A stretch of 64,000 nucleotides of DNA from a bacterium (GTDB taxonomy: Bacteria > Patescibacteriota > Minisyncoccia > UBA6257 > GWB1-50-10): positions 21,858 to 85,857 of the forward strand of contig JAUSKB010000011.1 in the NCBI GenBank assembly GCA_030647415.1, read 5' to 3'. A program made the translations under genes and the position numbers. This document shows, piece by piece, positions 6,801 through 40,416 of the stretch; position 1 is the first letter of the stretch, and the number at the start of each line of letters is the position of its first letter. The notes beneath the pieces are model-generated. The model did not search any database. It was given only the letters and a program-made list of their open reading frames with translations, and was not told where the DNA came from.

Positions 6801-8720
6801 GACGGGCTGGGTCATGGAGACGCCGGAAACCGTGGAGGTCGGATTGGTGTAGACAATGGTCTTGGTGGCGATAACGTTTGACAATGTTGAACTCGCGGTG
6901 CTTGATGCGCTATTGAAGTTGTTCGTGCCTGCCACGTCATCGGTAAAGCTCAAGACGAAGGCGCTTTGGTCAGTAGTTGAGGAGTAGATAAGGCCGGAGA
7001 AGGTGGAGACGCCGTTCGAGGCGGTAGAGGTCGTCGTGCCAGAGAGAGTACCAGCGCCGCTATAGACCGCGGCCGTAACCACGTCAGTGTTGACCGCCGC
7101 ATCCAGCGTGTTCTGCGCGTTAACGAATCGAATGACGGGCTGGGTCATGGAGACGCCGGAAACCGTGGAGGTCGGATTGGTGAAGACGATAACCTTGGTG
7201 GCGACAACGTCCGAGGTGAGGGCGTTTGCATTGACAGCCGCAAGGTCGCCTTCGGCGCCACCAGCAACATCATCCGCAGCAAGGGTAAACGCTTCCTGGT
7301 CAACCGAAGCGGTGTACGCAAGACCGGAGAAAGTGGCGACACCAGAAACCGCGCTTGTGGTCGCATTCGCCAGGGTGCCGGTAGACGCTTCCGTCAGAGT
7401 AATCACCTCAACGAAATCAGTGTCAGTCGCGCCAGCTGCGTTTCTGGCTGTTACCACTGGCTGGGTGACCAACGCGATGCCGGAGGTGGCGGAGGCCGGT
7501 TGCGTGGTAAAGGCAAGCACGGTGGCAACAACGTTTGACAATGTTGAACTCGCGTCCACCGGGGCGCCATTAAAGTTATTCGTGCCTGCCGCGTCATCGG
7601 TGAAACGCAGGACAAAGGCGCTTTGGTCGGTTGATGAGGAGTAAAGAAGACCAGAGAAGGTGGAGACGCCGTTCGAGGCGGTAGAGGTCGTCGCGCCGGA
7701 CAATGATCCACTGCCGCTCTGGACTGAAACGGTTACCACGTCAGTGTTGACCGCGGCATCCAGCGTGTTCTGGGCGTCAACGAATCGAATGACGGGCTGG
7801 GTCATAGAGATGCCGGAAACGGTGGAGGTCGGATTAGTGAAGACGATAACCTTGGTGGCGACAACGTTCGAGGTGACGGCGTTGGCGGTAGTTGTAGCAA
7901 GGTTCGTACCCACACCAGCATCATCATCAGCGGTCAAGGTGAATGCCTCTTGGTCAACCGAGGCGGTGTAAATCAAGCTAGCGCCAGTAGCAAAATTAGC
8001 AACACCGGCGACGGCGGCCTCTGTGGCATTCGCCAGCGTGCCGGTAGCGGTTTCAGTCAGAGTAATAAGTTCTGTGAAATTGGTGTCAGTGTTTCCATAT
8101 GTGTCACGCGCCGTTACGACTGGTTGAGTCACCAGTGCGATGCCGGAGGTGGCAGAGGCCGGTTGGGTGGTGAAAACAATTTGCGTAGCAGTCCCCGGCG
8201 TAAGCGTCACGCCCGCAATTCCGCTCTGGGCAGTTTCACCTGATGCGTTACTTGTAATTGTGAAAGTTCCTGTCGCTCCAGAAGTTGTCGCGTTCGTGAT
8301 ACCAGTCGTTATTCGAAAAGTCGTCCCTGTCCCCGTGCCGAGATCATAACCACTCGTTAAGGTCGCTTTAATGGTGCTACTCGCCGAACTACCGATAACA
8401 CTATCTATGCTACGGTCCACACCGTCCACGCTGATAAAGCCGGAGGTTACACACCCGCTATTACAAATGGCTGAAGCCCCAAGCGATCCATTTGTGATTG
8501 CGTAGCCAGCGGGAAACGTAACGGTAAGAGTCGTCGCGGTTGATGTTGTATTTGTATCAAACGAAACATTGTAATCAGCGTTCGCGGCGCCTACCACCAA
8601 ATCAGCCGCAGCAGTCCCAGCCACCGAACCACCGCTCACTGTCGCGTGAGCATTCGGAACCAAAACAAAACCACCGATTAAAACGAACGCGACTACTAAA
8701 AGAAAACTAGATTTTTTCAT
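3834..8720 (-). CDS. Giant (about 1628 aa) Ser/Thr/Ala-rich secreted surface protein, S-layer-like. It carries tandem Ig-like repeats, Fn3 and Big-like domains.
   Basis: The track ORF is 3834..8843. The internal ATG at 8720 gives MKKSSFLLVVAFVLIGGFVLVPNAHA, a signal peptide. Two repeat types of about 100 aa alternate (FTTQPASATSGIALVTQPVVTAR... and KVIVFTNPTSTVSGISMTQPVIRFV...). The C-terminal domains include an Fn3 (SSVSIAWTTSE...LYHFRVLSSDASGN) and a Big-like domain. Confidence 0.8.
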   Translation of the reverse strand: MKKSSFLLVVAFVLIGGFVLVPNAHATVSGGSVAGTAAADLVVGAANADYNVSFDTNTTSTATTLTVTFPAGYAITNGSLGASAICNSGCVTSGFISVDGVDRSIDSVIGSSASSTIKATLTSGYDLGTGTGTTFRITTGITNATTSGATGTFTITSNASGETAQSGIAGVTLTPGTATQIVFTTQPASATSGIALVTQPVVTARDTYGNTDTNFTELITLTETATGTLANATEAAVAGVANFATGASLIYTASVDQEAFTLTADDDAGVGTNLATTTANAVTSNVVATKVIVFTNPTSTVSGISMTQPVIRFVDAQNTLDAAVNTDVVTVSVQSGSGSLSGATTSTASNGVSTFSGLLYSSSTDQSAFVLRFTDDAAGTNNFNGAPVDASSTLSNVVATVLAFTTQPASATSGIALVTQPVVTARNAAGATDTDFVEVITLTEASTGTLANATTSAVSGVATFSGLAYTASVDQEAFTLAADDVAGGAEGDLAAVNANALTSDVVATKVIVFTNPTSTVSGVSMTQPVIRFVNAQNTLDAAVNTDVVTAAVYSGAGTLSGTTTSTASNGVSTFSGLIYSSTTDQSAFVLSFTDDVAGTNNFNSASSTASSTLSNVIATKTIVYTNPTSTVSGVSMTQPVIRFVNAADALDTFANADVVTAEVLSGGGTVSGNTTSSASNGVATFSGLIYSSTTDQSAFVLRFADDAAGTNNFNSASSTASSTLSNVIATVLAFTTQPASATSGIALVTQPVVTARNAAGATDTDFVEVITLTEASTGTLANATEAAVAGVANFATSDDLIYTASADQEAFTLTADDVAGGAEGNLATVNANAVTSDVVATKVIVYTNPTSSISGVSMTQPVIRFVDAQNTLDALANTDVVTAAVYSGAGTLSGTTTSTASNGVSTFSTILYTATADQQAFVLSFTDDAAGTNNFNSASSTASSTVSNVVATKFLVTLATSTPTAGSADTMTLTAANAGDITDTGYSATGKTYNFLDASSTALSTHTSPNGTAPTIPASSTVQAAFSSGVASLATFTLTRAEVLGAITVNDATLTGTSTSVTVRHAAASTYTVTPSTATPTAGTAFNLTVTAKDTSGNTASGVNGTVYTGVVFISASATAPYDLSPESYPFVSGDAGTKTFTSGVTLNTAQTVTITARDYADATITSSTSVTVSASADTTAPTISNIQASSITSSSVSIAWTTSETSASSTIQYGTTSSYGSSTVSTTSTTSHSRGLTGLIASTLYHFRVLSSDASGNTGTSGDQTFTTIGSDTTAPTVSSQYPTNASTSVVATIQPYIEFSEELKVSSVNSNTAQLRKSSDDSVVTATVSLGNGGKRVIIAPLSSLTATTSYYLYASTSVQDATGNALATAYGASSTSAFTTAATDTTAPTVSAQSPVDGATTTAITASPTVTFSEAMDANTVNTNTVQLRLYSGDSVVSASYSMNDARTIVTIDPIANLANSTQYYLWVTGAKDAAGNTVTAYTTKASQEFTTTAESVTLAVTGISASSTFATANDTYASGWSWVFSVTVPTGETSTTMKFADWISGSNTIAAASNIRFYSAQSSNATSSSPITITAANTYPSAMTLNADLDANTAGRQIQIVVEAKVPTGSAGGSYSTSYGIQSQ
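5850..8200. repeat. Near-identical intragenic tandem DNA repeats inside the giant surface-protein gene, with a period of about 1 kb built from alternating 660-bp and 340-bp sub-units.
   Basis: A 60-mer (aacgaatcgaatgacgggctgggtcatggagacgccggaaaccgtggaggtcggattggtg) recurs at about 6130, 6790, 7130 and 7790. The shadow ORFs 6370..6654 and 7087..7644 encode near-identical peptides. Confidence 0.6.
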
Positions 8721-9141
8721 ATTTATTACGAACTGAATTCTATCGCAGGTTCTTCCGCCAGAGGCACCGTGCCTACCGGCGGGCAGGGATCCACCTTCGC
8801 GCTTGCAAACGACCTTTTGTTTTTTTGCGCGGGAAGGTTTCAAGAACCTGCGTTTATTGTTTTAGATAGTTATGCCGAATATTTCTTGATGCCTGAATGA
8901 CCTTTTTATAAGATCTGAAATTAGGGTTAGTTATCAAATCAATATCGTACGTACATTGTAGCATACCCACTATTCTTCACCTGTGGATATGTGCAAAATA
9001 TGCACATACTGCGCGAGCCACGCGATTATCCGCTGGCGCTGCTGGAACGCTGCGTCTGAAATAATAGGTAGTAATGGCAGGTGAGAGTGGCGAGTTCGCG
9101 AAGGCGGGCCCGACTCGCATACAGGCGAGGCAGGGTGTAGG

Positions 9142-9267
9142 ATTCACCCTGTTAGAGATTTGCATACAATTTTCTGCCATATTTAAGTATGACGGTACTG
9201 AAAGCAAAAATGTACACCGAGAAAGTAGCGTGCGTGCAAATCTCTAACAGGGTAAACTTCTAACAGG
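9142..9267. promoter_or_regulatory. Inverted-repeat motif pair, (A)TTCACCCTGTTAGAGATTTGCA and TGCAAATCTCTAACAGGGTAAAC, about 70 bp apart, with an extra half-site TTCTAACAGG. It sits upstream of the initiating sugar-transferase gene.
   Basis: The 18-nt arms are perfect reverse complements (9142-9164 and 9235-9257). The same motif family recurs at 52324-52586. Confidence 0.5.
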
Positions 9268-16736: not shown

Positions 16737-16801
16737 GACATTCCAATGTTCCGCGGAACATTGGAATGTCATACTGTGCCTGTTACCGTGTCTGTTACCG
16801 T
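16737..16801. promoter_or_regulatory. A 34-bp perfect palindrome (GACATTCCAATGTTCCG|CGGAACATTGGAATGTC) followed by a tandem 11-mer CTGTTACCGTG x2. It sits upstream of and overlapping the start of the oxidoreductase fusion gene.
   Basis: Perfect reverse-complement symmetry was verified base by base. The direct repeat lies at 16779-89 and 16791-801. Confidence 0.5.
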
Positions 16802-16840
16802 GCCTTTTCTGAATGGAGCGAGCGACGTATACTATATTTC

Positions 16841-18607
16841 ATGCGCATCCTGACCGGCAAGAAGTGGCGCGGGGGGTTCCTCGACTACCACCGGAACAAG
16901 AAGGAGTACCGAATCCAGGTGCTCGCATGGAAAAATCTTGAAAAACTCGAGAACGTCTACCACACCCGGCCCAAGAGCCTCCGCCTCCTCTGGAACTACC
17001 TCCCCGTCGTGGGGTTCGAAGGGCTCCTCACGAAGACCTGGTCTCGGCTCCGCGAGGACCGGCGGAACGAAAAGTACGTTGCCTGCGGCGTCGGTACCGT
17101 CATCGAGGGCGCCGGCGACGCACGATTCCCCATAGGTTCCATTGTCTGCTTCGTCGCGCCCTGGCACCCCGCGCTCGCGGAGCGCGTCGTCCTCCCCGAG
17201 GAGCTCGTCTTCGCCATCGATACGGCCGCGACGCCGAAGGTCCCCGACGGGACCATCCTCCACGCGCCGCTCGCGCGCGGAAAGAACGAGCTTCCCTGGT
17301 GGAAGCCGGTGCGCGCGTGGAGCACGTACGCCGGCATCGCGCTCTCCACGGAAACGATCTCCGAGCTTGAGCGAGGGCTCCGCATCGAGCTCTCAGCGAC
17401 CGACTGGTCACGGGCGGACCGCATGAACGCGTCCCACCCCGCGCCTGTCGCTCTCGTCCATGGCGGCGTCCCCACGTCAGGGCACTCAAACCAGCAACTG
17501 ACCCGCCTCGCCCGACGAGCGGGCGAGTCGAGGCGGGCAACCGATGGTTCTACAAGCTCACCATCTCTTCGAGAGCCTGAGGGCTCCTCAGAGCCTCGAA
17601 CGGCCCGAGCAGAGTCGAGGGACAACCGACAACCGAAGATGGGGATTCTCTACGGGTTCGGCAACTACGCGAAAACCAACATCATCCCCTACTCGAGGCC
17701 CTTCGTGAACATACGGACGGTCCACGAGATCGACCCCACGCAGATCGCCGGCGCGCACCGCGTGGAGCGATGGGAATCGTCCCCGTTCCCGGCAGAGAAC
17801 GAGCGGGCCGAGGTCTACTTCGTGGCGAGCTACAACCACACCCACGTCCCCATCACCCTCCACGCCCTTGCGCAGGGGGCCTACGTCGTCGTCGAAAAGC
17901 CCGTCGTGATGGACCACGACGAGCTCGCGGAGGTCGAGGTTGCGCTCCGGAAGGCGGGGCGGAAGCTCTTCGTCGGATTCCATAAACGGTACGGGCTTTT
18001 CAACCGGCTGGCGCTCGAGGACCTCAAGGTAGAGCCGGGCGAGCCCATCTCCTACCACTCCATCGTGTACGAGCTCATCCAGCCCGAGTTCTTCTGGTAC
18101 AACTGGCCGGTTTCGCGGAGCACCTTCCTCTCGAACGGCTGCCACCAGGTGGACCACTTCCTCCACCTGAATGGCTTCTCGAAGCCGAAAGACGCAGGAA
18201 TCAAGCTGCTCCAAGACGACGCCGTCGAGGTATGGATCGAACTTGAAAACGGGGCGTCCTTCACCACCACGTTCAGCGAGAAGGGCGTTTCGCGCGTCGG
18301 CCCGCGGGACCACGTGGAGCTGAAGGTACACGGCCGGAACGTGCGCATCACGGACGCCATCCGGTACCAGTCCGAGGATAACCACCGCATCATCCGGCGG
18401 AGGCGCATCGTGAAGACAAACAGCTACAAGGACATGTACCGGACCATCTGCGCGAAGATCGCGGCAAACGAACCGGGCGACACCATTGAGTCTGTCCTCA
18501 TCACCTCAAAAATCATGCTCGACCTCGAGGAGAAGCTCCAACACATGAAACATTGGGGTACTAGATACGATATCGCAAAGAAAGAGTTTGAAAAGCGTTT
18601 CTTCTAA
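16841..18607 (+). CDS. Fusion protein. An unknown N-terminal domain of about 250 aa is joined by a low-complexity linker to a C-terminal Gfo/Idh/MocA-family NAD(P) oxidoreductase, a putative sugar dehydrogenase.
   Basis: The C-terminal half has a Rossmann fold and the VVVEKP motif typical of Gfo/Idh/MocA. The linker is RRAGESRRATDGSTSSPSLREPEGSSEPRTARAESRD. The ATG at 16841 (MRILTGKKW) is preferred over the track start at 16766. Confidence 0.6.
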   Translation: MRILTGKKWRGGFLDYHRNKKEYRIQVLAWKNLEKLENVYHTRPKSLRLLWNYLPVVGFEGLLTKTWSRLREDRRNEKYVACGVGTVIEGAGDARFPIGSIVCFVAPWHPALAERVVLPEELVFAIDTAATPKVPDGTILHAPLARGKNELPWWKPVRAWSTYAGIALSTETISELERGLRIELSATDWSRADRMNASHPAPVALVHGGVPTSGHSNQQLTRLARRAGESRRATDGSTSSPSLREPEGSSEPRTARAESRDNRQPKMGILYGFGNYAKTNIIPYSRPFVNIRTVHEIDPTQIAGAHRVERWESSPFPAENERAEVYFVASYNHTHVPITLHALAQGAYVVVEKPVVMDHDELAEVEVALRKAGRKLFVGFHKRYGLFNRLALEDLKVEPGEPISYHSIVYELIQPEFFWYNWPVSRSTFLSNGCHQVDHFLHLNGFSKPKDAGIKLLQDDAVEVWIELENGASFTTTFSEKGVSRVGPRDHVELKVHGRNVRITDAIRYQSEDNHRIIRRRRIVKTNSYKDMYRTICAKIAANEPGDTIESVLITSKIMLDLEEKLQHMKHWGTRYDIAKKEFEKRFF

Positions 18608-18857
18608 ACTGAAAGGGTGCCCGCCCGCCGCGCCCGACACGCTTCGCGAGTCATGCGGGCGGGCATCGCTACCTGCCCGAAGCTGCTGCATCGCTGCAGG
18701 CGGGCGCGAAGCGTTGCGGGCGGGGGGCGACAAGTATGAGCGGGCGAAAGCGGAGTTCGAGCGCCGCTTCCGGTAAAGAGACTGCGCGGAGCGCACGCAA
18801 TGGCGGAGGCGGAGTTCTTTTTGCCATTTTCGCTAACTTTATATAGTTTCCTAAATA

Positions 18858-18886
18858 TTGCATAACTTTATAAAGTTTGATACTAT
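18858..18886 (+). promoter_or_regulatory. Promoter TTGCAT-N17-TACTAT for the Fic gene, with a leaderless or short-leader start.
   Basis: The hexamers were read directly. The -10 element overlaps the ATG at 18885, and the next ATG is at 18900. Confidence 0.4.
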
Positions 18887-18899
18887 GGCGATATCACGC

Positions 18900-19847
18900 A
18901 TGAAGCAAGCCAAACCCATGACCACTCGTCAAAAACTGGAAATCATCCGAAAGATGCTGGGACTGACCCAGACCAAGCTAGCCCAAAGGTTTGGGGTGTC
19001 CTTCGCGGCCTTCAACAGCTGGTGGACCGGTAAATCGAACCCGCGGCCGAAGATGCAGGCCGCCATCAACGAGCTGTTCCTGGAGGTGACCGGGCAGAAG
19101 ATAATCCCCGCCGACCAGCTCACCGCCAAGAAGCAGGCGTTGTCGCGGAAATCGGGAGAGCATGAAAACGTCGTGGCCGAAATTCTGGACAATCCGGATG
19201 TCCGCGACCAGTTCATATTGAAACTCACCTACCACAGCAACCGCATCGAAGGCAGTACGCTCACCGAGCCGGACACAGCAGCGATCCTTTTTGACAATGT
19301 CGCCTTGCCGAACAAAAGCATCATCGAACAGCTTGAAGCAAAAAACCACCAGACTGCCCTGAACTATCTTTTCGACTCTGTGGCCACGAAGGGGAAAATC
19401 AACGGGGCGCTGGTTCTCAAACTCCACGGCATTCTCATGAACGGCATAAAGTCGGATGCCGGCGCGTACCGCAACCATGGCGTGCGAATCACCGGTGTCA
19501 ATCTGCCGACCGCAAATTATGCAAGCGTACCGAAGTTGATGGCCGAAGCGATGCGCAAGACTGCCAAAAAAACGAAAGATGTCGTCGCACTCGTCGCCGC
19601 GGTGCACGGCACGTTTGAGCAGATCCATCCATTCTCCGACGGCAACGGTCGCACGGGCCGCCTGCTTATGGACGCCATGTTGCTTCAGGCAAATTTCGCC
19701 CCGCCCATCATCCGCCAAGAGCAAAAACGGCTCTACTACATGTATCTCTACAAAGCCCAGACCAAGGAGGATTACAGCCGGCTGGAGGATTTCCTCTGCG
19801 ATGCAATCGTGGACGGATTCAAAATCCTCGAGCGAGCTGATTCGTAG
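18900..19847 (+). CDS. Fic/Doc-family protein (putative AMPylase) with an N-terminal XRE-type HTH.
   Basis: The Fic core is HPFSDGNGRTGR. A class-II inhibitory motif SxxxEG (SNRIEG) precedes the core. The HTH is LGLTQTKLAQRFGVSFAAFNSWWTG. The track start at 18858 is TTG, and the true start is probably the ATG at 18885 or 18900. Confidence 0.7.
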   Translation: MKQAKPMTTRQKLEIIRKMLGLTQTKLAQRFGVSFAAFNSWWTGKSNPRPKMQAAINELFLEVTGQKIIPADQLTAKKQALSRKSGEHENVVAEILDNPDVRDQFILKLTYHSNRIEGSTLTEPDTAAILFDNVALPNKSIIEQLEAKNHQTALNYLFDSVATKGKINGALVLKLHGILMNGIKSDAGAYRNHGVRITGVNLPTANYASVPKLMAEAMRKTAKKTKDVVALVAAVHGTFEQIHPFSDGNGRTGRLLMDAMLLQANFAPPIIRQEQKRLYYMYLYKAQTKEDYSRLEDFLCDAIVDGFKILERADS

Positions 19848-20011
19848 AAAAAGGTCTCGCGTGATCTCTGTCAGCGAACAACTTGAACTGTTCATGGCAC
19901 TGTTCTTGTGGTTGTTGGGATACCCCCTAACTTCCCCTAGCCCGCAACAGTAACTCCCCCTAGCCCCCTCTTATGAATAAGAGGGGATATGCATTTCCCT
20001 CCTCCCCTTAC

Positions 20012-20407
20012 CTATAAGGGGAGGTTGGGAGGGGTTAAGTCCGCGATTGCTTCGCGGACTTTTTCATACACACCCTCCAGATTCCGCAACACGTCATTGT
20101 TCCAAAATCGAATCACCATGATGTTTTGCTCCCGAAGGTATGCGGTCCGAACCGCGTCAGAATCGCTATCAATGTGCTGGCTCCCATCAACCTCTATCGC
20201 CAATCGAAACGCCGGACAGTAAAAATCCAGAATGTACGCACCGATGCCGTACTGCCTGAAAAACTTCACTCCGTTCATACGCTTGCCACGAAGCACACCC
20301 CACAGCTTCCGTTCCGCCTCAGTCTGCGACCTGCGCAACGACCTGCGCCGTTCCTTTAGGTCCTCACTGTTATAGAGGTGGGGCATAATTCCAGTAACCC
20401 CTCTCAT
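20012..20407 (-). CDS. DUF559 / Vsr-like endonuclease-domain protein.
   Basis: FYCPAFRLAIEVDGSQH...VIRFWNNDV matches the DUF559 signature. Family A palindromic repeats flank it on both sides. Confidence 0.7.
   Translation of the reverse strand: MRGVTGIMPHLYNSEDLKERRRSLRRSQTEAERKLWGVLRGKRMNGVKFFRQYGIGAYILDFYCPAFRLAIEVDGSQHIDSDSDAVRTAYLREQNIMVIRFWNNDVLRNLEGVYEKVREAIADLTPPNLPL
20039..20064 (+). terminator. Candidate terminator for the Fic transcript. It lies inside the 3' coding end of the convergent DUF559 gene.
   Basis: GTCCGCG-attgctt-CGCGGAC followed by TTTTT. Confidence 0.35.
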
Positions 20408-20456
20408 TCTCCCCTTATGCTAAAGGGGGTACCCTCCTAACTCCCCCAACCCCCTC

Positions 20457-21599
20457 TTATTCTAAGAGGGGGGCGCCCCGGCGAAGGCGGACGATCTCCC
20501 GGTCGATGAGGAGCGGGTACCAGAGACCGTGCAGTACGTGGTACCGCCACCCCGTCGGACCGTCGAGAAACCCGCCGCGCAGAATGAACACATACCCGAA
20601 GTAGAGGACAGCGCGGAGAAAGAGCGGCAGTCGGTCGTACGCACCCCGCCTCCCCGCCCGCAGTCTCTGTTCGGTGTCCGCACCAACGGCAGCTGTAACC
20701 CCCCCTAGCCCCCCCTTATCGGTAAGGGGGGGGAGCGGACCTAACCCCACCTTATGAGCAAGGGGGGGGATTGGACCTAACCCCACCGTATCTGTAAGGG
20801 GGAGGATCGGGCCTAGCCCAACCGTATGAGCAAGAGAAGTGAGCGGAATCGACCTCCCCTTATCATAAGGGGAGGCAGGAGGGGTTACCCCTCTCCTCTG
20901 CCAATATTCTTTTGCTTTTAAGACGGCATACCGCCGGTGCTTCGCTTTCCAATCCGCGAGGCCGCGACGGTCGTCGTGCACAAGGTCGTGCTCCAGCTTT
21001 CCCGTCGCGCCGTCCACCGCGAAATGCTCGTCCATGAGTTGCCCCTCGCACCGCGCCACCGACCGCCGCATGAGCCGCAGAATCCAGACGGGATAGTACC
21101 CGCCGTGGCGGATCCACCGCCCATCCCACATGAACCGGCGTTTGAGATAGTAGCCGTTTATAGGTGATGTAGGCGCGTGCTCATCTTGTAAATTAACCTC
21201 GATACCCCTCATAACCCCTCCCAACCTCCCCTTATGATAAGGGGAGGCAGGAGGAGTTACTTCCTCGGCGTTTGTCGTTGGTTGTTTATTGTTTATTATT
21301 TGCCCAACCTCCTCCTTCAGCTCCTCCGTCGGATACTCGTCAGCGTCCACGAAGAGCACCCACTCGTTTCGGACCGGAAGCTCCCGGAGCGCCCAGTTCC
21401 GCTGCTCCACGAACCCGGCGAACGTATGCTCCACAACCGTTGCACCCGCCTCTCGTGCAATCGCCGCCGTCCGATCAATGGAGCCCGAGTCGAGAACCAC
21501 GACCTCGTCCGCCCACCCCACGACGTGCTCAAGGCACCGGGCGATGTTCGCCTCCTCGTCCCTGGTGAGCACAACAACTGCGACCGGCGCCACTTTCAT
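20457..21599 (-). CDS. GT2 glycosyltransferase (WaaE/KdtX-like) carrying in-frame palindromic-repeat insertions.
   Basis: The N-terminal GT-A fold is VVVLTRDEEANIARCL...VLDSGSIDRT...FVDADE. The C-terminal region has W.RHGGYYP..LRLMRR and GGFLDGPTGW. The repeat-encoded inserts are PPASPYHKGRLGGV and a PLTD/VGLGP tandem of about 60 aa. Confidence 0.75.
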   Translation of the reverse strand: MKVAPVAVVVLTRDEEANIARCLEHVVGWADEVVVLDSGSIDRTAAIAREAGATVVEHTFAGFVEQRNWALRELPVRNEWVLFVDADEYPTEELKEEVGQIINNKQPTTNAEEVTPPASPYHKGRLGGVMRGIEVNLQDEHAPTSPINGYYLKRRFMWDGRWIRHGGYYPVWILRLMRRSVARCEGQLMDEHFAVDGATGKLEHDLVHDDRRGLADWKAKHRRYAVLKAKEYWQRRGVTPPASPYDKGRSIPLTSLAHTVGLGPILPLTDTVGLGPIPPLAHKVGLGPLPPLTDKGGLGGVTAAVGADTEQRLRAGRRGAYDRLPLFLRAVLYFGYVFILRGGFLDGPTGWRYHVLHGLWYPLLIDREIVRLRRGAPLLE

Positions 21600-21602
21600 G
21601 CC

Positions 21603-22391
21603 TTACCTCTTGGTTCGTTTCAACTCTCGGCGGTACACGCGATCCCGCTGCGCGATGGTGTCTGTGAGCCAACTCCTCATGTGGTGACAGTTTGAAACGA
21701 CACAGTGCCCCCCGATGCCGCCGGGCATGTGTTTCAGAACCGGACGTGCGACGTACGGCTTCCCGAGCTTCCGATACCCCACGTTGTAGTCCTTGTTCGG
21801 CACGGTGTACACCTCGTCGTAGTCGAGCTCCCACTGAGCGCACAGCCGCTTCGCCTCCTTCGCGAAGACGATGTTCCATCCGTAGTACGCGGTATCAAGA
21901 AGCTTCGCGAGCTCGGTCGTTTCCGGCTTCCGGAACGTCACGGTTTTGAACCCTACCCGAGCGAACACATCCGCCGCGCGTTTCGCCTTCGGTCCGGCGA
22001 AGTACTTCGGGAAGGCGAAGAGGCTTCGGGCGAAGTGCCGGGGATTCCCGACCACGACGTGCGGCGATGCGTTCGTGACCCCAGGGTGATGCCTCTTCGT
22101 GTGCATGCCGCGAATCGGGCTGTGTACCGCACGCCTCCCTATTTTCATAGTGGTTCCGACGGGCACCGTCGAGTGCACGATGACGAGCGATGGCCGATAC
22201 AGGGCAATGTAGCGCTTCGTCGCTCTCACAAAATTCTTTGCCATCGGATACGCGATATGCATTACATCGAAACGCCCCTTCAAACCCACTTCTGCGTCTC
22301 GTAGGGAAACAGGAAAGGCACGCGACAACACTATAGCGAGCGCCTGCCCCACCTCGCCTGCGCCGATAATCAAATGCCGTTCTTTGCTCAT
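21603..22391 (-). CDS. Short protein of the UDP-glucose/GDP-mannose dehydrogenase family. It has the N-terminal NAD domain and central domain but lacks the C-terminal UDP-binding domain. Possibly truncated or decayed.
   Basis: IGAGEVG Rossmann motif, HSTVPVGTT, ETTELAKLL...LCAQWELDYDEV...PGGIGGHC (compare PG.G.GG.C). The protein ends about 25 aa later. The start was chosen at MSKERH (22391). An alternative start is MARLQ at 22412. Confidence 0.5.
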   Translation of the reverse strand: MSKERHLIIGAGEVGQALAIVLSRAFPVSLRDAEVGLKGRFDVMHIAYPMAKNFVRATKRYIALYRPSLVIVHSTVPVGTTMKIGRRAVHSPIRGMHTKRHHPGVTNASPHVVVGNPRHFARSLFAFPKYFAGPKAKRAADVFARVGFKTVTFRKPETTELAKLLDTAYYGWNIVFAKEAKRLCAQWELDYDEVYTVPNKDYNVGYRKLGKPYVARPVLKHMPGGIGGHCVVSNCHHMRSWLTDTIAQRDRVYRRELKRTKR

Positions 22392-22550
22392 ATCATTTTG
22401 TAACCTGGCCATTTTCTCGAACAGTATTATATACGGAACAGGGTTGTCCCGCCACCGCGCGCGGGGAAAATGTCTCAAGCGCGAATTTCGGGCACCGAGC
22501 GCAAGATTTTCCCGACGCGATGCGTCCGTGAGCAAACAAACGAGCGCCCC

Positions 22551-22640
22551 TCAGAGCACCCGCGCCGTCTTACGGCAACGCCGCAAAGAGTTCGCCTCCT
22601 CGTCCCTGGTGAGAATGATAACGGTGAGGGGCGTTTTCAT
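22551..22640 (-). pseudogene. A 5' stub of a GT2 gene: MKTPLTVIILTRDEEANSLRRCRKTARVL followed by a stop.
   Basis: It shares an identical 23-mer, ttcgcctcctcgtccctggtgag, and the peptide VxxLTRDEEAN with the start of GT2 20457..21599. It was translated codon by codon, and a stop follows after 29 aa. Confidence 0.45.
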
Positions 22641-23812
22641 GCCAATCGAACAAGTTCAGTGTATGCCTCCCGGAAGGCGTGGGCGACTTTCGGCGCGAGG
22701 AAAGATTTTTCAACAAGGGACTTCCCGCGAACTCCCATATCGTGCGCAACCGTACGGTTCCCCAGAACCTTGAGAATTGCCCCCGCAACCGCCGCCTCGT
22801 CCTTTTCCACCACCAATCCCGCACCCGAATCCGCGACTTCGCGGGAGAGCGCGACTCCGGGAGTCACGACAACCGGGAGTCCGGCATACATCGCCTGGAT
22901 GACAGCCATCCCGAAATTCTCCGAGTACGAGGGGAGCACAAACACATCGGCGTCCGTGAGCGCGGGGACATTCATACCTTCGAATGGCCCGGTGAATAGG
23001 ATGCTCTTTTGCAATTGGTAATTGGAAAGTAGTAATTGGACATTTTTCTTGTACCCTTCATCGCCCGAACCGCTTATGACAAGAAGCACTCTCGGGTCTT
23101 TCTTCGCAACGCGCGCAAGGGCAGGAATGAGCGTGTCGAACCCCTTCTTCCATCCGATGCGCCCCATCGCGAGCACGATACGCCGGTCGAGGGAAATCTT
23201 CCACTTCGAGCGGAAATCACCGGGGGCCGCCGGAGGCCACCCTTCGGTGTCAAGCCCGTTCGGGATAACGAATGCCCTCCGGAGCGGAAATCCGGCGCCC
23301 GCATACTCTTCGCGTTCCGTCTCGCTTGTGAAGTGAATGGCGGCGGCGTGAGCGAGGTTCCGCCGCTCGATGAGCGCGAGGTAGAGGCGCTTCTTCAGGG
23401 CACTTTTCATTCCGAGCGGCTCGCACATCAAACTGCCACGAGGAGAGATGATGTAGGGCTTTCCCGCGCGACGCGCGGCGCTGGCGGCGAGAGTCGAGGC
23501 CGCGAGGAACACTGAGGTGACGTGAACGAGGTCAAATTCACCCGTGCGCTCTTTGAGCGCGCGCCGGAGTGCGGATGAGTACATCCACCGAGCCGGAAAC
23601 GACACGGGAAAGTACCACACCTTCACGCCGTCAATGTCTATCTCCTGGTTCAACACGACGTTCAACCGGTTCGGTCCGTCAGCATTCGTCGTAAAGACCG
23701 TCACCGCAACCCCCCCGCGCACAAGCCACTTGTTCAAGGCGTGGACCGAGATGATCGGCCCCCCGTACCGATACGCGGGTAGGTAGCTCGGCACTATATG
23801 GAGAATCTTCAT
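22637..23812 (-). CDS. GT4 glycosyltransferase.
   Basis: MKILHIVPSYLP...; C-terminal ENFGMAVIQAMYAGLPVV. Confidence 0.85.
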   Translation of the reverse strand: MKILHIVPSYLPAYRYGGPIISVHALNKWLVRGGVAVTVFTTNADGPNRLNVVLNQEIDIDGVKVWYFPVSFPARWMYSSALRRALKERTGEFDLVHVTSVFLAASTLAASAARRAGKPYIISPRGSLMCEPLGMKSALKKRLYLALIERRNLAHAAAIHFTSETEREEYAGAGFPLRRAFVIPNGLDTEGWPPAAPGDFRSKWKISLDRRIVLAMGRIGWKKGFDTLIPALARVAKKDPRVLLVISGSGDEGYKKNVQLLLSNYQLQKSILFTGPFEGMNVPALTDADVFVLPSYSENFGMAVIQAMYAGLPVVVTPGVALSREVADSGAGLVVEKDEAAVAGAILKVLGNRTVAHDMGVRGKSLVEKSFLAPKVAHAFREAYTELVRLA

Positions 23813-24564
23813 CTCTTTGGCGTAGCCAGAATCTCACTCGTCTCAGCGAGCGGAAATCCATCGAGCGCTACCACGTCGTACCCGAACCCCACGAGCATCG
23901 TCTGGCACTCGGCCCGGTTCGCGTCGGTATGTATCGCGATGAAAAGTATGGGGCGACCGGTGCGAATGGTGTTCGTGGCGCCATGGAGCACGGCGGACTC
24001 CGCACCTTCGACATCGATTTTTATCACATTGGGCACCGGGCACTTCATGACGGAAATAAAATCATCGAGCGACGTCGTTTTCACTTGCACGTCGGTCGTC
24101 TTGTCTGCCATCAAACCGCTGAAAGAATCCTCTTTGGTGTCAAAATATGCAGTTCCGGAACGATCGGAAACGGCCGCTTCGATGATCTTCACGTTCCCAC
24201 AATGATTCAGCTCACAGTGCCGTTTCAGAAAAGCGAGGTTCCGTGGCAACGGCTCGAACGCGACTATCTTTCCCCGAATTCCGACTGCCCGAGAAGCGAG
24301 GAGTGTGTAGAACCCGGCGTGCGCTCCGATGTCAAAGACGATATCGGCTTCGTGTAGTGAACGAAAGAACGCTCTCTGTTTCTTCGCTTCGTATGTTCCG
24401 AGCCAATAACTCGCGTTCCCCGAGCCCTTTACCCACCATGCGCCGCGGAGCGGGCCAGAAAGCACCGGCACCACGGTCCTGTCGGGGATAACCTGAAGAA
24501 TGGTTCGTGCTACTGATCGCCACGTCATGTGATTTTCTCCCTCCGGTTCCATATACACTACCAC
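23809..24564 (-). CDS. FkbM-family SAM-dependent methyltransferase, a likely sugar O-methyltransferase.
   Basis: FDIGAHAGFYTL and IKIDVEGAE motifs. Confidence 0.75.
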   Translation of the reverse strand: MVVYMEPEGENHMTWRSVARTILQVIPDRTVVPVLSGPLRGAWWVKGSGNASYWLGTYEAKKQRAFFRSLHEADIVFDIGAHAGFYTLLASRAVGIRGKIVAFEPLPRNLAFLKRHCELNHCGNVKIIEAAVSDRSGTAYFDTKEDSFSGLMADKTTDVQVKTTSLDDFISVMKCPVPNVIKIDVEGAESAVLHGATNTIRTGRPILFIAIHTDANRAECQTMLVGFGYDVVALDGFPLAETSEILATPKR

Positions 24565-24598: not shown

Positions 24599-26062
24599 TT
24601 ATGCGGAGCGGACCAACGATAGAATCTCGTCCAAGGCTCGCTCCTTCAAGAGCTTGAGAATGGCGAAATACACGGCACCGGAGAGGGCGATGTTCAAGAG
24701 AACTGGCCAACCCAGCATCTGAAAAAACCAAGCGAGGACCATCATCGGAACGGCTGCCCCAAAAATTTTCGAAAACCCTCCCCAGAGCGAAAACGGTGTT
24801 ATTTTTCTGCACAGCCGGAACGTAAGATACGAGTACACGACACTCGACATGAGCGTCGCAAACGATGCCCCGATCATACCCAATCGCGGAATAAGGAGGA
24901 AATTCAATCCGATACTGACAAGGGATGTGATAATCGCAATCGCGATTGTTTTGCGTTGTTGATCGTATGCAAATATGCAATTTGTAAAAATGACCATGGG
25001 AAATGTGGCAAGAATGGAAAACAAGAGAATTGCCATGGCGCTTGCTCCCGAAATATACGCCGCGCCGAAAATGAATTCCAAAAGCGGGGCGCCAAGCACG
25101 ACACCGCCAAGCACGAGCGGCACCGCGAACAGGAACAGAACCCGGAGCACGCTCTCTATGACCTGGCGGGTACGCATCGGGTCCCCTGAATGCGCGAGTC
25201 TGGAAAACATAGGAAACATACTGGTAGCCACAAGAGCTGCCGGCACCCCCAGGATGCCAACTATTTTCTGAATGGCCGCGTAAATCCCGACATCGCCGGT
25301 GGTCTTCCAAAAACCGAGCATAATGATGTCGACATTGACCAAAAAGAGGCCGACAATCCCCCCCACCGCAATCGGCCATGCCGATTGCAAAATCGGGACA
25401 ACCAAATCTTTATTGAAGCTTTTGAAAAAGCCCTGAATGTGGCGAATGAATACGATTCCCCCCGCGAGAAAGACACCGAAAAGAGCGGCGGCGGCATATG
25501 CCATGGCCAGATATAAAGGGCTTTTCGAGACCATGAGCGCACCGAAACCGAAAACCACGAGCGCAATGTTGGACGCGAGCGTGACCACGGCCTCCCACTC
25601 CATCTTTTCGATGCCCCGGAAAAAGGCAACGAAGAGATCCCTCATGTCGTCGGCAATGAACATCACCATAAGCGCCGGAATCAGCGTAAGCGCCTCCGGG
25701 ATGTGGGTGAAAAGCGGTGCCACAAACAAGAGGAGGGCGGCGGTTATCACAAGGAGGCCTACCTCCAGCCAGAACGAAGTCGCGAACAGCTGGTTCCGCT
25801 CCGCCGGGCGATGGGCGACCTCTCGCGTCATAATCCCATCAACTCCGATATTCTTGAAAAAAAGGAAGAAGCTGGTGAGACCAACCGCATATGAAAACAC
25901 CCCATAGCCGGAGGTTCCAAGCGCCCGCGCCGCATAAATCGTGATAGCGCTCCTGATGACGCGCCCTCCCACCTGGCTCGTCATCAGCCACAGGAAGTTC
26001 TTCACGACGGTTCCCTTCTGACTGTGATCACCAAAGAATAATTTTTTAAATGTGCGTACCAT
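24599..26062 (-). CDS. wzx: Wzx-type flippase, copy 2.
   Basis: A paralog of 10674..12185 (YAARALGTSGYGVFSYAVGL) and a polytopic membrane protein. Confidence 0.8.
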   Translation of the reverse strand: MVRTFKKLFFGDHSQKGTVVKNFLWLMTSQVGGRVIRSAITIYAARALGTSGYGVFSYAVGLTSFFLFFKNIGVDGIMTREVAHRPAERNQLFATSFWLEVGLLVITAALLLFVAPLFTHIPEALTLIPALMVMFIADDMRDLFVAFFRGIEKMEWEAVVTLASNIALVVFGFGALMVSKSPLYLAMAYAAAALFGVFLAGGIVFIRHIQGFFKSFNKDLVVPILQSAWPIAVGGIVGLFLVNVDIIMLGFWKTTGDVGIYAAIQKIVGILGVPAALVATSMFPMFSRLAHSGDPMRTRQVIESVLRVLFLFAVPLVLGGVVLGAPLLEFIFGAAYISGASAMAILLFSILATFPMVIFTNCIFAYDQQRKTIAIAIITSLVSIGLNFLLIPRLGMIGASFATLMSSVVYSYLTFRLCRKITPFSLWGGFSKIFGAAVPMMVLAWFFQMLGWPVLLNIALSGAVYFAILKLLKERALDEILSLVRSA

Positions 26063-33140: not shown

Positions 33141-34259
33141 TTAACCGACAACACCCAAATCCTTCAACTTTTTCGCCGTATGCCGGACAAATCCAAGATC
33201 AAACTTCTCGGTCTTTATCCATCGCATGTAATCTCGGATCGCTTTTTCGGGTCGGTAGCGAGGCCGCCAACCGAGTCCTTTGAGTTTCGAAATATCGGAA
33301 ACCGCGTGGCGCGTATCGGTCCTCCTGAATCCCCCTACAACGATCGGCGAGGGCGTTCCGGTGATGTGTTTGACCATCTTTGCAAAATCGAGGACGCGGT
33401 ACCCTTTTCCGCAACCCACGTTAAAGATCTGATAATCGGCTTTTTTGTTCTGCATGACAAGCATATTCGCGGCGACAACGTCGGCAACATTCACAAAATC
33501 CCGAAGCTGCTTCCCGTCCTCATACACCGTGATGGGAAGCCCTGCGAGCGCTTGTGTTACGAAAATGCGGAGCGCCCCGGAATACGCGTTCAGCGGAGAC
33601 TGGCGAGGGCCTTGGACGATCGAGTATCGAAGCGCTACCGTCGGGATGGTGTGTGTTTTGCCAAAACGGAATGCCAACTGCTCAAGCGCTATCTTTGAAA
33701 GGCTGTACGCGTTCGGAGGAGAGGCAAGCTGGTTTTCGCGGAACGGAAAGAACTTCGCGGGCTTTCCGTGCTCGCATAAAATCGGCCACGTCGCTTTTTC
33801 CTTTTGCGCGGCAGGACGAAGTTCCGGATAAAAAATCTTCCCCGAATGGCGGCATTGGTACTTCCCGTCCCCGTACACAAACTGGGAGCTGGCGAGCACG
33901 ATTTTTTTTACCGGAAATCTTTTCTCGGCGATCACTTCGTACATCATCGCCGTCCCAGCTGTGTTGATGTGGAAAAAAGTGCTGAAGTCCGGCAATTGAT
34001 CCTGATATGCCGCCAGGTGAAACACATAGTCAATCCCTTGTAGCGCCCTCACCCAATCTTTTTTGTTTCGAACATCGCCCTTGATCAGTTCGAACCCCTT
34101 GCCCAGCACATACTTCGGCCATCGATCCGTATGCACCGGTTTTAAGAGGCAGTCCAAAATCCGCGCCGTGTATCCTTTGGCTTTAAGCGCGTCAGCGGTG
34201 TGACTTCCGATAAACCCCGCACCACCGGTAATTAAAACCTTTTGCTTTTGGTTATTCAT
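33141..34259 (-). CDS. NAD-dependent epimerase/dehydratase (extended SDR).
   Basis: VLITGGAGFIGSH and YSLSK. Confidence 0.85.
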   Translation of the reverse strand: MNNQKQKVLITGGAGFIGSHTADALKAKGYTARILDCLLKPVHTDRWPKYVLGKGFELIKGDVRNKKDWVRALQGIDYVFHLAAYQDQLPDFSTFFHINTAGTAMMYEVIAEKRFPVKKIVLASSQFVYGDGKYQCRHSGKIFYPELRPAAQKEKATWPILCEHGKPAKFFPFRENQLASPPNAYSLSKIALEQLAFRFGKTHTIPTVALRYSIVQGPRQSPLNAYSGALRIFVTQALAGLPITVYEDGKQLRDFVNVADVVAANMLVMQNKKADYQIFNVGCGKGYRVLDFAKMVKHITGTPSPIVVGGFRRTDTRHAVSDISKLKGLGWRPRYRPEKAIRDYMRWIKTEKFDLGFVRHTAKKLKDLGVVG

Positions 34260-34299: not shown

Positions 34300-34329
34300 T
34301 CACGCGCCGCCGGTAATTAAAACCCGCAT
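34300..34329 (-). pseudogene. A 5' stub duplicating the start of the downstream epimerase gene (MRVLITGGA, then stop).
   Basis: Decoded codon by codon. It shares gttttaattaccggYggYgcg with the gene start at 34221-34245 and lies 40 nt upstream of the real ATG. Confidence 0.4.
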
Positions 34330-37193: not shown

Positions 37194-38186
37194 TTATTTC
37201 GGATTATTCAGGTACCAATCGTACGTTCTCTTCAGGCCCTCATCAAGCGAGATCTCTGGCTTCCACCCGACGAGTTTTTGTAATTTTGAAACATCCGCAA
37301 GCCGGCGCTTCACGCTCCCGGGTGGAGAGGATTGTATATCCAAAGACTTCGGATGCCACCCGACGATTTGAAACATCTTCTCCACAAGGTCTTTCATCGT
37401 GATCTCGGTGAAATCGCCGATATGCACGGTCTCGATCGGTTGCCCGTCGGTCTTTGAGGAATCCATGAGCATCCGCATCGCCCGGACTGCGTCGTCAATA
37501 TAACAGAACGTTCGAGTGTCGTCGGCACCATAAATAGGGAATGGATCAACGTGGGCGGCGATACGACCGCAGAAGTCAGGTATCACGTGCCCATCATAAC
37601 CGGCGCGAGGACCATAGAAGTTATGCGGTCTTACGATAAGAGCCCGGAAATTATATGCTTTCGCATAGTGGATAACGAACAGCTCCCCCACCAATTTGGT
37701 CGACCCATACGACCATCGCGGGTTGTAGGGGTTGTCTATCACAAGCGGAACCTTCTCCGGCGTGGGAATAGGCAGGACACCAAAGGCGCTCAATCCGCCT
37801 GCGTAGGCCTCGTTGGAGGATGTAAAACAGAACTTTCCGTCATGGTTCTTCTTTACGAGCCAATCCAACATGTACACAAGCGTGAGAATGTTCACCCGCA
37901 AGACCTCATGGGGAATCTCGTAGAAAAGCTTGGTGCCGTTAATCGCCGCGAGGTGATACACGTGCCCATAGCCGCTCCCAAGCTTTTCATAGGAGGAGAG
38001 GTCCGTGAGGTCCAGATTCAATAACTGTATCCTCGGGTTCTTCACGAGCTCCTCAAAGTCGTGGTCCATCTTCCCTCTCCGGAAGTTGTCTACTAAAACA
38101 ATCTCGCTATCGGTAGTTTGAACGAGGTACTTCGCGAGATGATAACCTATAAATCCAGCTCCACCGGTTATAAGAACCTTCATCAT
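37194..38186 (-). CDS. NAD-dependent epimerase/dehydratase (extended SDR).
   Basis: MMKVLITGGAGFIGYH and YGSTK. The ATG at 38186 forms an ATGA overlap with the stop of the upstream dehydrogenase. The track start is TTG at 38198. Confidence 0.85.
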   Translation of the reverse strand: MMKVLITGGAGFIGYHLAKYLVQTTDSEIVLVDNFRRGKMDHDFEELVKNPRIQLLNLDLTDLSSYEKLGSGYGHVYHLAAINGTKLFYEIPHEVLRVNILTLVYMLDWLVKKNHDGKFCFTSSNEAYAGGLSAFGVLPIPTPEKVPLVIDNPYNPRWSYGSTKLVGELFVIHYAKAYNFRALIVRPHNFYGPRAGYDGHVIPDFCGRIAAHVDPFPIYGADDTRTFCYIDDAVRAMRMLMDSSKTDGQPIETVHIGDFTEITMKDLVEKMFQIVGWHPKSLDIQSSPPGSVKRRLADVSKLQKLVGWKPEISLDEGLKRTYDWYLNNPK

Positions 38187-39391: not shown

Positions 39392-39456
39392 GGTGAAGAT
39401 CGCAAAAATACCTCCGTTCGATTGTTTCCTGATTATCTCGCGTTGAAACTTCCCCG

Positions 39457-40416
39457 TCAAACACGCTTCATGTCTTCCTCGACCATCATGCGCACCAGAT
39501 CGGCAAAGCCGGCCTTCGGCCGCCACCCGAGGGCGGTTCGGATCTTTGTTGAGTCTGCGCGCCACTCGTGCGCTTCGATCGGGCGGAAGAACGACTGGTC
39601 TATCACCACGTATTTTTCCCAGTCGAGGCCCGCGAACGCGAACGCGGCTTCAACGAATTCGCGAATGGTGTGCGTTTCCCCCGTTCCGACCACATAGTCG
39701 TCCGCAACAGGGGCCTGAAGCATGAGCCACATCGCCTCAACATAGTCGCCGGCAAATCCCCAGTCTCGCCGCGAATCCAGATTTCCGAGACGGAGCTCTT
39801 TTTCTGTCCCTGCTTTTATCTTTGCAATCGTCGTCGTGATCTTTCGTGTCACAAAGTTAGCCCCTCTCCTCGGAGATTCGTGACTGAACATTATGCCCGA
39901 GCACGCAAAGAGGCCGTGCGCTTCGCGATAAAGCTTCGTCAGATAGAAACTCGCGATCTTCGAAACGCCGTAGGGCGACGTCGGGTTATAGGGTGTGTTC
40001 TCGTTCTGCGGAGACGACGTGATCTTTCCGAAACAATCCGCGCTGCTGGAAAAATAAAAATGCGCTTTCGGAGCAGATTCTTTGAGCGCGGCGAGAAAGT
40101 AGTGCGTGCTTGAGATATTTGTGGTGAATGTCCCAAATTCGTCCTGAAATGACTCGGGGATGCTTGAGACCGCCGCAAGGTGATAAACCTCGTCGGGCAT
40201 TATCTCTTCCACGAGGCGCCGCACGGTTGGATGGTCCGTGACGTCGCCTGTATGCAGAACGAGGCTCTTGTTCCCGAGAAGGTGCCGGATACGCCAAAGA
40301 TCTTTTTCGTCGGGGCTCTTCCTCTCCACGCCGTGTACCTCGTATCCTTTGGAAAGCAGAAGTTCGGTGAGGTAGGAGCCGTCCTGACCCGCAACACCCG
40401 TAATAAGTGCCCTCAT
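39457..40416 (-). CDS. gmd: GDP-mannose 4,6-dehydratase.
   Basis: LITGVAGQDGSYLTELLL, YGVSK and GIMFSHESPRRG. Confidence 0.9.
   Translation of the reverse strand: MRALITGVAGQDGSYLTELLLSKGYEVHGVERKSPDEKDLWRIRHLLGNKSLVLHTGDVTDHPTVRRLVEEIMPDEVYHLAAVSSIPESFQDEFGTFTTNISSTHYFLAALKESAPKAHFYFSSSADCFGKITSSPQNENTPYNPTSPYGVSKIASFYLTKLYREAHGLFACSGIMFSHESPRRGANFVTRKITTTIAKIKAGTEKELRLGNLDSRRDWGFAGDYVEAMWLMLQAPVADDYVVGTGETHTIREFVEAAFAFAGLDWEKYVVIDQSFFRPIEAHEWRADSTKIRTALGWRPKAGFADLVRMMVEEDMKRV

Follow-up and report, generated by a model that had tools for sequence, protein, structure and literature searches.

A short, uncharacterised dehydrogenase-like family and a putative glycosyltransferase relic in a Patescibacteria-type glycan locus

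Short, dead pieces of sugar-pathway or transferase genes lying between intact genes are familiar from O-antigen and capsule clusters, as in the wzy remnants of Salmonella and the anomalies of Escherichia coli, and their presence there is read as a sign that recombination took place recently (PMC3715488, PMC7685785). Homology-facilitated illegitimate recombination, which joins one end by homology and the other illegitimately, is an established mechanism (PMC3240628), and the effector/immunity arrays of the Vibrio cholerae type VI secretion system undergo sequential displacement of their cassette genes (PMC5361080). In both of these systems a new cassette displaces the resident gene and a fragment of the old one stays behind. 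A closely comparable arrangement occupies positions 21603-22640 of the window, the 64,000-nucleotide stretch of contig JAUSKB010000011.1 analysed here, where a 29-codon stub resembling the start of a family 2 glycosyltransferase (GT2) gene precedes a gene for a 262-residue protein related to the UDP-sugar dehydrogenases. The locus differs from the O-antigen cases in that its host is of the Patescibacteria type, the piece is a mere 29 codons long and keeps a translational overlap with the upstream gene, and no insertion sequence or H-repeat element is found at the window junction.

The second point of comparison is the set of canonical UDP-sugar dehydrogenases, Ugd, WecC/Cap5O and AlgD, united by the TIGR03026 model. 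The catalytic set of UDP-glucose dehydrogenase (UGDH), known from the structures of the Streptococcus pyogenes and human enzymes, comprises a Cys, a Lys, a Thr, a Glu, an Asn and an Asp. The short protein and these enzymes have the same fold in their first two domains (TMq 0.70), hold in common the GxGxxG motif, the STVPxGT motif, the central-helix Lys and the GGxC cysteine, and are likewise set among sugar-nucleotide genes. They part in that the short protein has no C-terminal UDP-binding domain and a shortened Rossmann domain, and in that Glu, Asn and Asp are replaced by Ile or Val, Thr and Asn. Taken as a whole, the locus probably contains an intact short dehydrogenase gene, belonging to an uncharacterised family, beside a dead GT2 5′ end left by cassette replacement.

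The short dehydrogenase family

The brevity of the protein is a family trait. A search of 5.8 billion proteins returned 2099 homologs at E<=1e-3, and the best 120 of these 2099 measure 217-298 residues and mostly cover 95-99% of the query. Forty-eight columns are invariant in an alignment of 45 homologs, which all end together at ...W-LT-T---RN--Y (...RNKKY); a loop of ~25 residues, predicted to be disordered, is the sole difference setting the window protein and its nearest relatives apart. A profile search of 1.84 billion representatives of clusters formed at 50% identity recovered 644 clusters at E<=1e-30, 1156 at E<=1e-10 and 1862 at E<=1e-3, almost all of the best 150 again falling between 217 and 300 residues. 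The gene is present in 70 GTDB species-representative genomes, most of them from lineages of the Parcubacteria and the Microgenomates and a few from DPANN archaea, as open reading frames (ORFs) of mostly 214-286 residues. A scan of JGI metagenomes with the window protein gave no close relatives, only matches of 35-55% identity. The nearest available comparison is L003, one of three loci (L001-L003) that represent a relative lineage in independent assemblies, made with different assemblers from different samples, and whose short dehydrogenase is 74% identical to that of the window. Against L003, codons 1-100 have a dN of 0.04 and a dS of 0.13, while past codon 100 dN is 0.30 and synonymous sites are saturated. 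The gene thus appears to be under purifying selection, and 21603-22391 is predicted to be intact and functional.

At the level of domains, the only Pfam match is to PF00984 (residues 158-238; 28.3 bits against a cut-off of 25.4). The Rossmann domain PF03721 gives no Pfam match in the protein at E<=0.01, and the C-terminal UDP/GDP-binding domain PF03720 is matched neither in it nor anywhere in its family. G10, G12 and G15 of the GxGxxG motif are invariant in the family alignment and the fold is Rossmann-like. AlphaFold2, supplied with the family alignment, yielded a model with a pLDDT of 91.3 and a pTM of 0.88, whose best fold matches in the PDB by Foldseek are the UDP-glucose dehydrogenases 3pid, 7kws and 1dli, at a TMq of 0.70 and ~15% identity, followed by Cap5O and CalS8. 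By sequence, the nearest PDB entry is a UDP-ManNAcA dehydrogenase (E 3e-7). The protein is accordingly modelled as the Rossmann and central helical domains of the UDPGDH family without the C-terminal nucleotide-binding domain. In a residue map drawn from sequence alignments rather than structural superposition, it keeps GxGxxG, the threonine of STVPVGT (Thr75), the central-helix Lys163 and Cys230 of GGHC. The canonical Glu corresponds to Ile93 (HSPIRG in place of APER or CPER, that is, PER to PIR), the canonical Asn to Thr167, and the canonical Asp to Asn234.

These observations bear on the preliminary description of the locus, which had taken the gene for a truncated and decaying one. Its outline of the protein was right in substance: the given length of 263 residues becomes 262, the stop placed about 25 residues past the active-site motif lies 32 residues beyond Cys230, at which the motif PGGIGGHC ends, and the C-terminal domain is indeed absent. 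Decay is another matter, as the protein belongs to a conserved short-form family with a shared C-terminal end and 48 invariant columns. Nor does alignment with a full-length dehydrogenase make it a truncated form, since the canonical paralog encoded within the same window (38183-39565) is just 24% identical to the short family over 146 columns. On TIGR03026 the protein scores 43.6 bits, far below the curated cut-off of 189.8. The family therefore appears to be only distantly related to the canonical UDP-sugar dehydrogenases, and the low TIGR03026 score, the 24% identity to the paralog and the purifying selection together argue that the gene did not arise recently from a canonical enzyme. Were it a UDP-sugar dehydrogenase pseudogene, truncated not long ago in a decay hotspot, this would explain the missing PF03720, the end of the protein 32 residues after a catalytic-type cysteine and the gene relic that adjoins it; against hundreds of same-length clusters that share their C-terminal end and 48 invariant residues, and against the same score, identity and selection, this explanation has practically no probability left.

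The stub and the displaced glycosyltransferase

The genes around 21603-22640, called from an ORF listing and a Pfam scan, all lie on the minus strand and follow one another, 5′ to 3′, in this order:

24599-26062, minus strand: Wzx-type flippase gene, first in the gene order
23809-24564, minus strand: FkbM-type methyltransferase gene, upstream of the GT4 gene
22637-23812, minus strand: GT4 glycosyltransferase gene, 391 residues (Pfam Glycos_transf_1 and Glyco_trans_4_4)
22551-22640, minus strand: putative GT2 5′ relic (the stub), 29 codons, 'type A', its ATG overlapping the TGA of the GT4 gene as ATGA
22590-22613, minus strand: 24-nt repeat, copy 2, encoding LTRDEEAN of the stub
22392-22550, minus strand: non-coding spacer of 159 nt between stub and short dehydrogenase gene
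ATG at 22391, stop at 21603-21605, minus strand: short dehydrogenase (UDPGDH-like) gene, 262 residues, 263 codons with the stop
20457-21599, minus strand: full-length 'type B' GT2 gene, 380 residues, WaaE/KdtX-like N-terminus (PF00535), beginning 3 nt past the short dehydrogenase stop
21546-21569, minus strand: 24-nt repeat, copy 1, encoding LTRDEEAN of the full GT2
20012-20407, minus strand: DUF559 endonuclease-like (Vsr-like) gene, after the GT2 gene

The stub, read from 22640 to 22551, translates as MKTPLTVIILTRDEEANSLRRCRKTARVL followed by a stop, and resembles the start of the full GT2, MKVAPVAVVVLTRDEEANIARC. The two are 82% identical over 44 nt and have in common the exact 24-mer GTTCGCCTCCTCGTCCCTGGTGAG, so that the duplication of the GT2 start had been correctly noticed and the identical 23-mer described with it is one nucleotide longer. 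A degenerate DEEAN-coding pattern occurs at these two places only in the window, against 0.01 expected from shuffles. The identity of the stub becomes apparent from the two closest orthologs of the GT4. P0272 (73% identity; L167 268-1440) is followed by an intact GT2 gene at 1437-2423, and P0273 (68% identity; L166 5001-6173) by one at 6170-7006; in both, the GT2 ATG overlaps the GT4 stop by 4 nt, as ATGA. The stub thus sits exactly where the coupled GT2 belongs. Congruent with this placement, the N-termini of the L167 GT2 (MKIPLSAVILTKDEEVNLSRC / MKIPLSAVILTKDEEVNLSRCLER) and of the L166 GT2 (MKTPLSVVILVKNEELN / MKTPLSVVILVKNEELNLPHVL) match the stub over ~22 N-terminal residues (tblastn E 1e-6), and P0305 is a GT4+GT2 fusion protein. 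The stub meets its stop after 29 codons, and similarity to GT2 is absent from the ~160 nt that follow. GT2 genes lying upstream in L083 and L084 were considered as ancestors of the stub and rejected as members of unrelated GT2 subfamilies.

The intact GT2 downstream is of another kind. The type A GT2 proteins of L167 and L166 are 66% and 58.5% identical to it, while it groups at 71% with the GT2 of L001 in type B, recognisable by an extra N-terminal codon; the stub groups with type A (MKxPL[ST]V...). Because the window GT2 falls with type B and not type A, the resident type A gene would have been replaced and not merely split. The stub at 22551-22640 accordingly appears to be a real relic, the 5′ end of a displaced GT2 once translationally coupled to the GT4.

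The relative lineage places this event in time. L001-L003 share with the window the 29-codon stub and its stop codon, its ATGA overlap with a GT4 gene, and the spacer; in L004, a third relative, the GT4 gene is directly followed by the short dehydrogenase gene and there is no stub. Between the window and L003, identity runs at 57-63% over the last 180 nt of the GT4 gene, 79-90% in the stub, 86% in the spacer and 93-98% in codons 1-100 of the short dehydrogenase gene, then falls to 50-72% past codon 100, and synonymous divergence goes from 0.13 to saturation at ~22100. The locus therefore appears to be a mosaic with a breakpoint inside the short dehydrogenase gene. The comparison with related strains that the preliminary description proposed has in this way borne fruit, and so has its suggestion of cassette shuffling: the intact GT2 that L167 and L166 have at this place, the stub in L001-L003 and the mosaic identity along the locus all support the reading of the stub as a remnant of cassette exchange. 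L001 adds a junction of its own. At 1022-1624, 3 nt after its short dehydrogenase gene, lies a 200-residue ORF for the C-terminal half of a GT4 (83.5% protein and 82% nucleotide identity to the 3′ half of the window GT4), followed by a methyltransferase gene, a type B GT2 gene and a DUF559 gene; this is another gene fragment at another cassette junction. Such patterns are in keeping with a glycan-diversity locus in which exchange, both homologous and illegitimate, has occurred repeatedly.

Divergence from L003 amounts to 15.6% in the stub (14 substitutions, 6 synonymous and 8 non-synonymous) and 14% in the spacer, at a dS of 0.13. Stub and spacer thus diverge at the synonymous rate of the adjacent coding DNA, as expected of unconstrained DNA, and the relic would have been drifting neutrally since before the split from the second lineage. 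The same numbers bear on the idea that the stub is a functional short upstream ORF, either a regulator or a peptide of the coupling or leader kind, by which ribosomes are handed on from the GT4 towards the short dehydrogenase gene. The ATGA overlap, a length and stop codon common to two lineages, and a synonymous share that at 6:8 is slightly above neutral expectation speak in its favour. However, the stub is homologous to the N-terminus of the GT2 that relatives carry intact at this position, its divergence equals that of the spacer and the dS, the changes in its tail are mostly non-synonymous, it ends ~160 nt before the dehydrogenase start, and L004 manages with a GT4 directly followed by the short dehydrogenase and no stub. 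A function of this sort is accordingly quite improbable.

How the GT2 was displaced can be reconstructed in outline. A type A GT2 coupled to the GT4 would have been displaced when the block of spacer and short dehydrogenase gene came to lie there, with the left junction probably just inside the old gene; in the window genome a related type B GT2 then follows the block. The most likely route would be recombination that was homologous on one side and illegitimate on the other, with likeness to the established mechanism (PMC3240628) in the homologous flanks and in the non-homologous junction inside a gene; in the window, where the left junction alone is visible, the mechanism is inferred.

The exact 24-mer offered another scenario, and it had been proposed that recombination took place at conserved gene starts. 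In its explicit form, one crossover at the 24-nt motif, or an insertion that duplicated its target, brought the short dehydrogenase cassette into the resident GT2 gene; the two 24-mers are the scars, and a deletion between them would bring back a single intact GT2 coupled to the GT4. Exact 24-nt direct repeats do flank the block, and joining them in silico gives an in-frame GT2 starting MKTPLTVIILTRDEEAN-IARCLEHV. On the other hand, the stub is of type A and the downstream GT2 of type B, with its extra codon and 58-66% identity to type A; the homology between stub and GT2 extends ~5-10 codons past the repeat; and the relative lineage has the stub with its tail but lacks a second instance of the motif, and what follows its dehydrogenase is a different gene. 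Duplicative insertion is therefore unlikely, though less so than a functional stub. With GT2 homology running past the 24-mer, and a stub in L001-L003 that lacks a second copy, the 24-mer itself is unlikely to be a recombination junction, and crossing-over at the conserved gene start is left unsupported. Agreement with the 24-mer of the window stub is 24/24 in the full GT2, 21/24 in the L003 stub, 18/24 in the L167 type A GT2 and 13/24 in the L001 type B GT2, and, across the loci retrieved, the 15-mer GACGAGGAGGCGAAC is confined to the L001-L003 stubs. Most simply, the exact 24-mer would be a later, short gene-conversion tract between stub and GT2, which lie 1 kb apart.

The spacer yields little else. 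It is taken as non-coding because a 1-nt indel relative to L003, to which it is 86% identical, breaks a longer, TTG-started ORF. A TATAAT box at 22431..22426, 35 nt before the dehydrogenase ATG, is conserved in L003 and partly in L004 and may be a candidate promoter of the short dehydrogenase gene; no sigma-70 promoter passed a consensus scan. In the same scan, a terminator-like hairpin at 22563..22540 spans the stub stop codon, such hairpins occurring at chance count. Rfam gave no credible match in 19800-23000, and the stability of the spacer RNA fold is not unusual (z-score -1.08).

Several points weigh against the picture of cassette replacement and a neutrally drifting relic. Tblastn of the spacer with GT2, GT4 and methyltransferase proteins recovered nothing past the opening ~22 residues of GT2, the changes in the stub, 6 synonymous and 8 non-synonymous, are too few to exclude weak constraint, two lineages do not suffice to fix the order of recombination events, and all sequences are metagenome assemblies. 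The last point invites the suspicion that stub, spacer or mosaic arose from chimeric joining of strains during assembly, the more so as the data are all metagenome-assembled genomes or contigs and the 5′ half of the dehydrogenase gene is 93-98% identical to that of another population. Set against this, the order of stub, spacer and dehydrogenase recurs in three independent assemblies, identity never reaches 100%, and the 24-nt repeat is shorter than the assembly k-mers (k127 and k141 in record names), which makes an artefact very improbable, only marginally less so than a truncated pseudogene. Cassette replacement remains the preferred explanation, and the relic, so understood, is an ordinary by-product of a known phenomenon.

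Small nuclease-type genes are found within these glycan loci or at their margins. A 94-residue GIY-YIG ORF at L166 4720-5004 overlaps the start of the GT4 ortholog, and a DUF559 gene follows the GT2 in both the window and L001. Such genes (DUF559, GIY-YIG) may be a source of the DNA breaks behind cassette exchange.

Other relics and repeats in the window

A second stub had been reported at 34300-34329, and this claim proved sound. The genes concerned, together with the canonical dehydrogenase, are:

34300-34329, minus strand: epimerase 5′ stub, 9 codons (SDR epimerase/dehydratase)
33141-34259, minus strand: intact epimerase gene, 41 nt downstream of the epimerase stub
37194-38198: epimerase paralog, blastx partner of the epimerase stub
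38183-39565, minus strand: canonical three-domain UDPGDH-family gene, 460 residues (PF03721, PF00984 and PF03720)

Read from 34329 to 34300, the epimerase stub is ATGCGGGTTTTAATTACCGGCGGCGCGTGA, encoding MRVLITGGA and a stop, 41 nt upstream of the real start MNNQKQKVLITGGAGFIG. Its homology runs past the stop, where FTPHHL follows MRVLITGGA in line with MKVLITGGAGFIGYHL, and its blastx match to the paralog has an E of 0.002. Blastx of all 32 intergenic segments against the proteins of the window itself gave no convincing 5′ stub beyond those of GT2 and epimerase, the other matches being to a weak possible 3′ relic and to palindromic repeats. Two small 5′ relics over ~20 kb of glycan genes do not make the window a general hotspot of decay, and that part of the preliminary description falls away.

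A possible 3′ relic lies at ~18708-18770 on the plus strand, downstream of the gene at 16766-18607: EALRAGGDKYERAKAEFERRF, after which a stop codon comes, is similar to QHMKHWGTRYDIAKKEFEKRF, the C-terminus encoded by that upstream GFO/IDH/MocA-type gene, a weak match (blastx E 0.02 in a small database). A supposed third stub at 43527-43709 was rejected, a full 310-residue epimerase gene (42745-43677) being located there.

The full GT2 carries two in-frame inserts of ~40 and ~75 codons, TPPASPYHKGRLGGV... and ...LGPLPPLTDKGGLGGV, made of palindromic repeats. One is a 36-nt unit in four tandem copies, another a 37-nt pair, and the third, a perfect inverted repeat of 24 nt, recurs in the 3′ end of the DUF559 gene. 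Within the gene the repeats lie at 20704-20847, 20852-20888 and 21212-21260, and beyond it at 19959-19994 and 20014-20037 (families D4, D10, I1 and I4). GT2 homologs without inserts are 265-287 residues long, and the window GT2 keeps all family-invariant residues. The L167 GT2 has a similar element in its first loop, and in the L001 ortholog both sites carry other inserts, of low complexity (QTTNN...). The inserts resemble the in-frame palindromic elements of Rickettsia.

Other features of the window stand apart from these genes. At the margin of the glycan cluster, and on the opposite strand to it, is a 329-residue gene with helix-turn-helix (HTH) and Fic/DOC domains (18858-19847). Per-gene GC ranges over the whole window from 0.42 to 0.67 around a mean of 0.545, a spread compatible with horizontal exchange having made a patchwork of the glycan genes. 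The ORF at 3834-8843 (1669 residues) contains, at 5863-8179, two interleaved families of 267-300-nt direct repeats with 72-85% identity, which point to a large protein with repeats. At 58061-58978 three copies are present of an internally palindromic element of 67 nt, CAGAGGCGAGA...TCTCGCCTCT, and inverted repeats of 20-26 nt (TTCACCCTGTTAGAGATTTGCA) are common to 9140-9256 and 52323-52586, 43 kb apart.

Neighbourhood, phage relatives and significance of the family

The genes that surround the family are those of glycan synthesis. Clustering of the genes within ~5 kb of the short dehydrogenase in 133 loci (65 cellular, 68 from IMG/VR) found an SDR epimerase/4,6-dehydratase in 46, two GT2 clusters in 37 and 21, GT4 in 24, a DegT aminotransferase in 23, a WecB-type 2-epimerase in 11 and a cytidylyltransferase in 10. 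In several Parcubacteria, the gene directly downstream is a GT2 of the same subfamily as that of the window. A separate gene for the missing C-terminal domain was looked for beside the short dehydrogenase, and none stands among the frequent neighbours in these loci. From fold, residues and gene neighbours we infer an oxidoreductase that depends on NAD(P) and uses a cysteine, its substrate being an intermediate in the synthesis of surface glycans, either a sugar or a sugar nucleotide. Since the protein lacks both the nucleotide-binding domain and three residues of the canonical catalytic set, its substrate recognition and its second half-reaction would differ from those of the UDP-sugar 6-dehydrogenases. 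Weighing against this assignment, the 133 loci reveal no single obligate partner gene.

Relatives of the short dehydrogenase also occur in 132 stretches of viral contigs (IMG/VR, loci L086-L165), at 32-46% identity and a GC of 0.26-0.72. Some lie <=5 kb from genes for tail fibre, major head, portal or terminase proteins, and some also <=5 kb from glycosyltransferase, 4,6-dehydratase or DegT genes. Tblastn of GenBank phages, with either the window protein or a viral-type member as query, gave no match, and PHROGs holds no family for the protein. Two phage proteins, from Microbacterium phage Fireman (262 residues) and Campylobacter phage F379 (256 residues), are of similar length and, in their BFVD models, have the same two-domain fold (TMt 0.62-0.63), while tblastn of GenBank phages detects no sequence similarity between them and the short dehydrogenase. 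These UDPGDH-like proteins, uncharacterised too, may be independent shortenings.

The gene family is also a home to mobile nucleases. Members P0151, P0156, P0210, P0258, P0192 and P0222 include fusions to a C-terminal HTH+HNH endonuclease or to an N-terminal NUMOD3+HNH, and one of this set, 657 residues long, bears a LAGLIDADG intein placed exactly at the conserved cysteine, as GGH|C. Evidently, selfish nucleases target these genes. A bolder proposal, speculative and rather unlikely, though less so than any of the alternatives weighed above, is that the short dehydrogenases constitute a distinct class of minimal, Cys-dependent NAD(P) oxidoreductases of the UDPGDH fold, from which the nucleotide-binding domain and half of the canonical catalytic set have been lost, and that they act on another substrate, such as a sugar attached to a lipid, a polymer or a protein, or an intermediate that carries no UDP. 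The class would be common to ultra-small bacteria and archaea and to tailed phages, and selfish nucleases may have mobilised it and kept it mosaic. If that were true, the nucleases moving the family could also explain the sharp breakpoint inside the window gene.

Two implications follow for the organisms and for the family. The glycan loci of reduced genomes appear to be reshuffled like the O-antigen and capsule loci of well-studied bacteria, which is expected and not surprising, and the uncharacterised short UDPGDH-like family is a more interesting item than the relic beside it. Public databases name its members either 'hypothetical protein' or 'UDP-N-acetyl-D-mannosaminuronate dehydrogenase', neither of which is justified, and in annotation they should not be labelled truncated or partial UDP-sugar dehydrogenases. 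With at least 644 clusters at 50% identity and no characterised member, a place in the glycan loci of Patescibacteria and DPANN archaea and another beside phage tail-fibre and glycosyltransferase genes, the family is a reasonable target for the enzymology of the cell-surface sugars of unculturable organisms.

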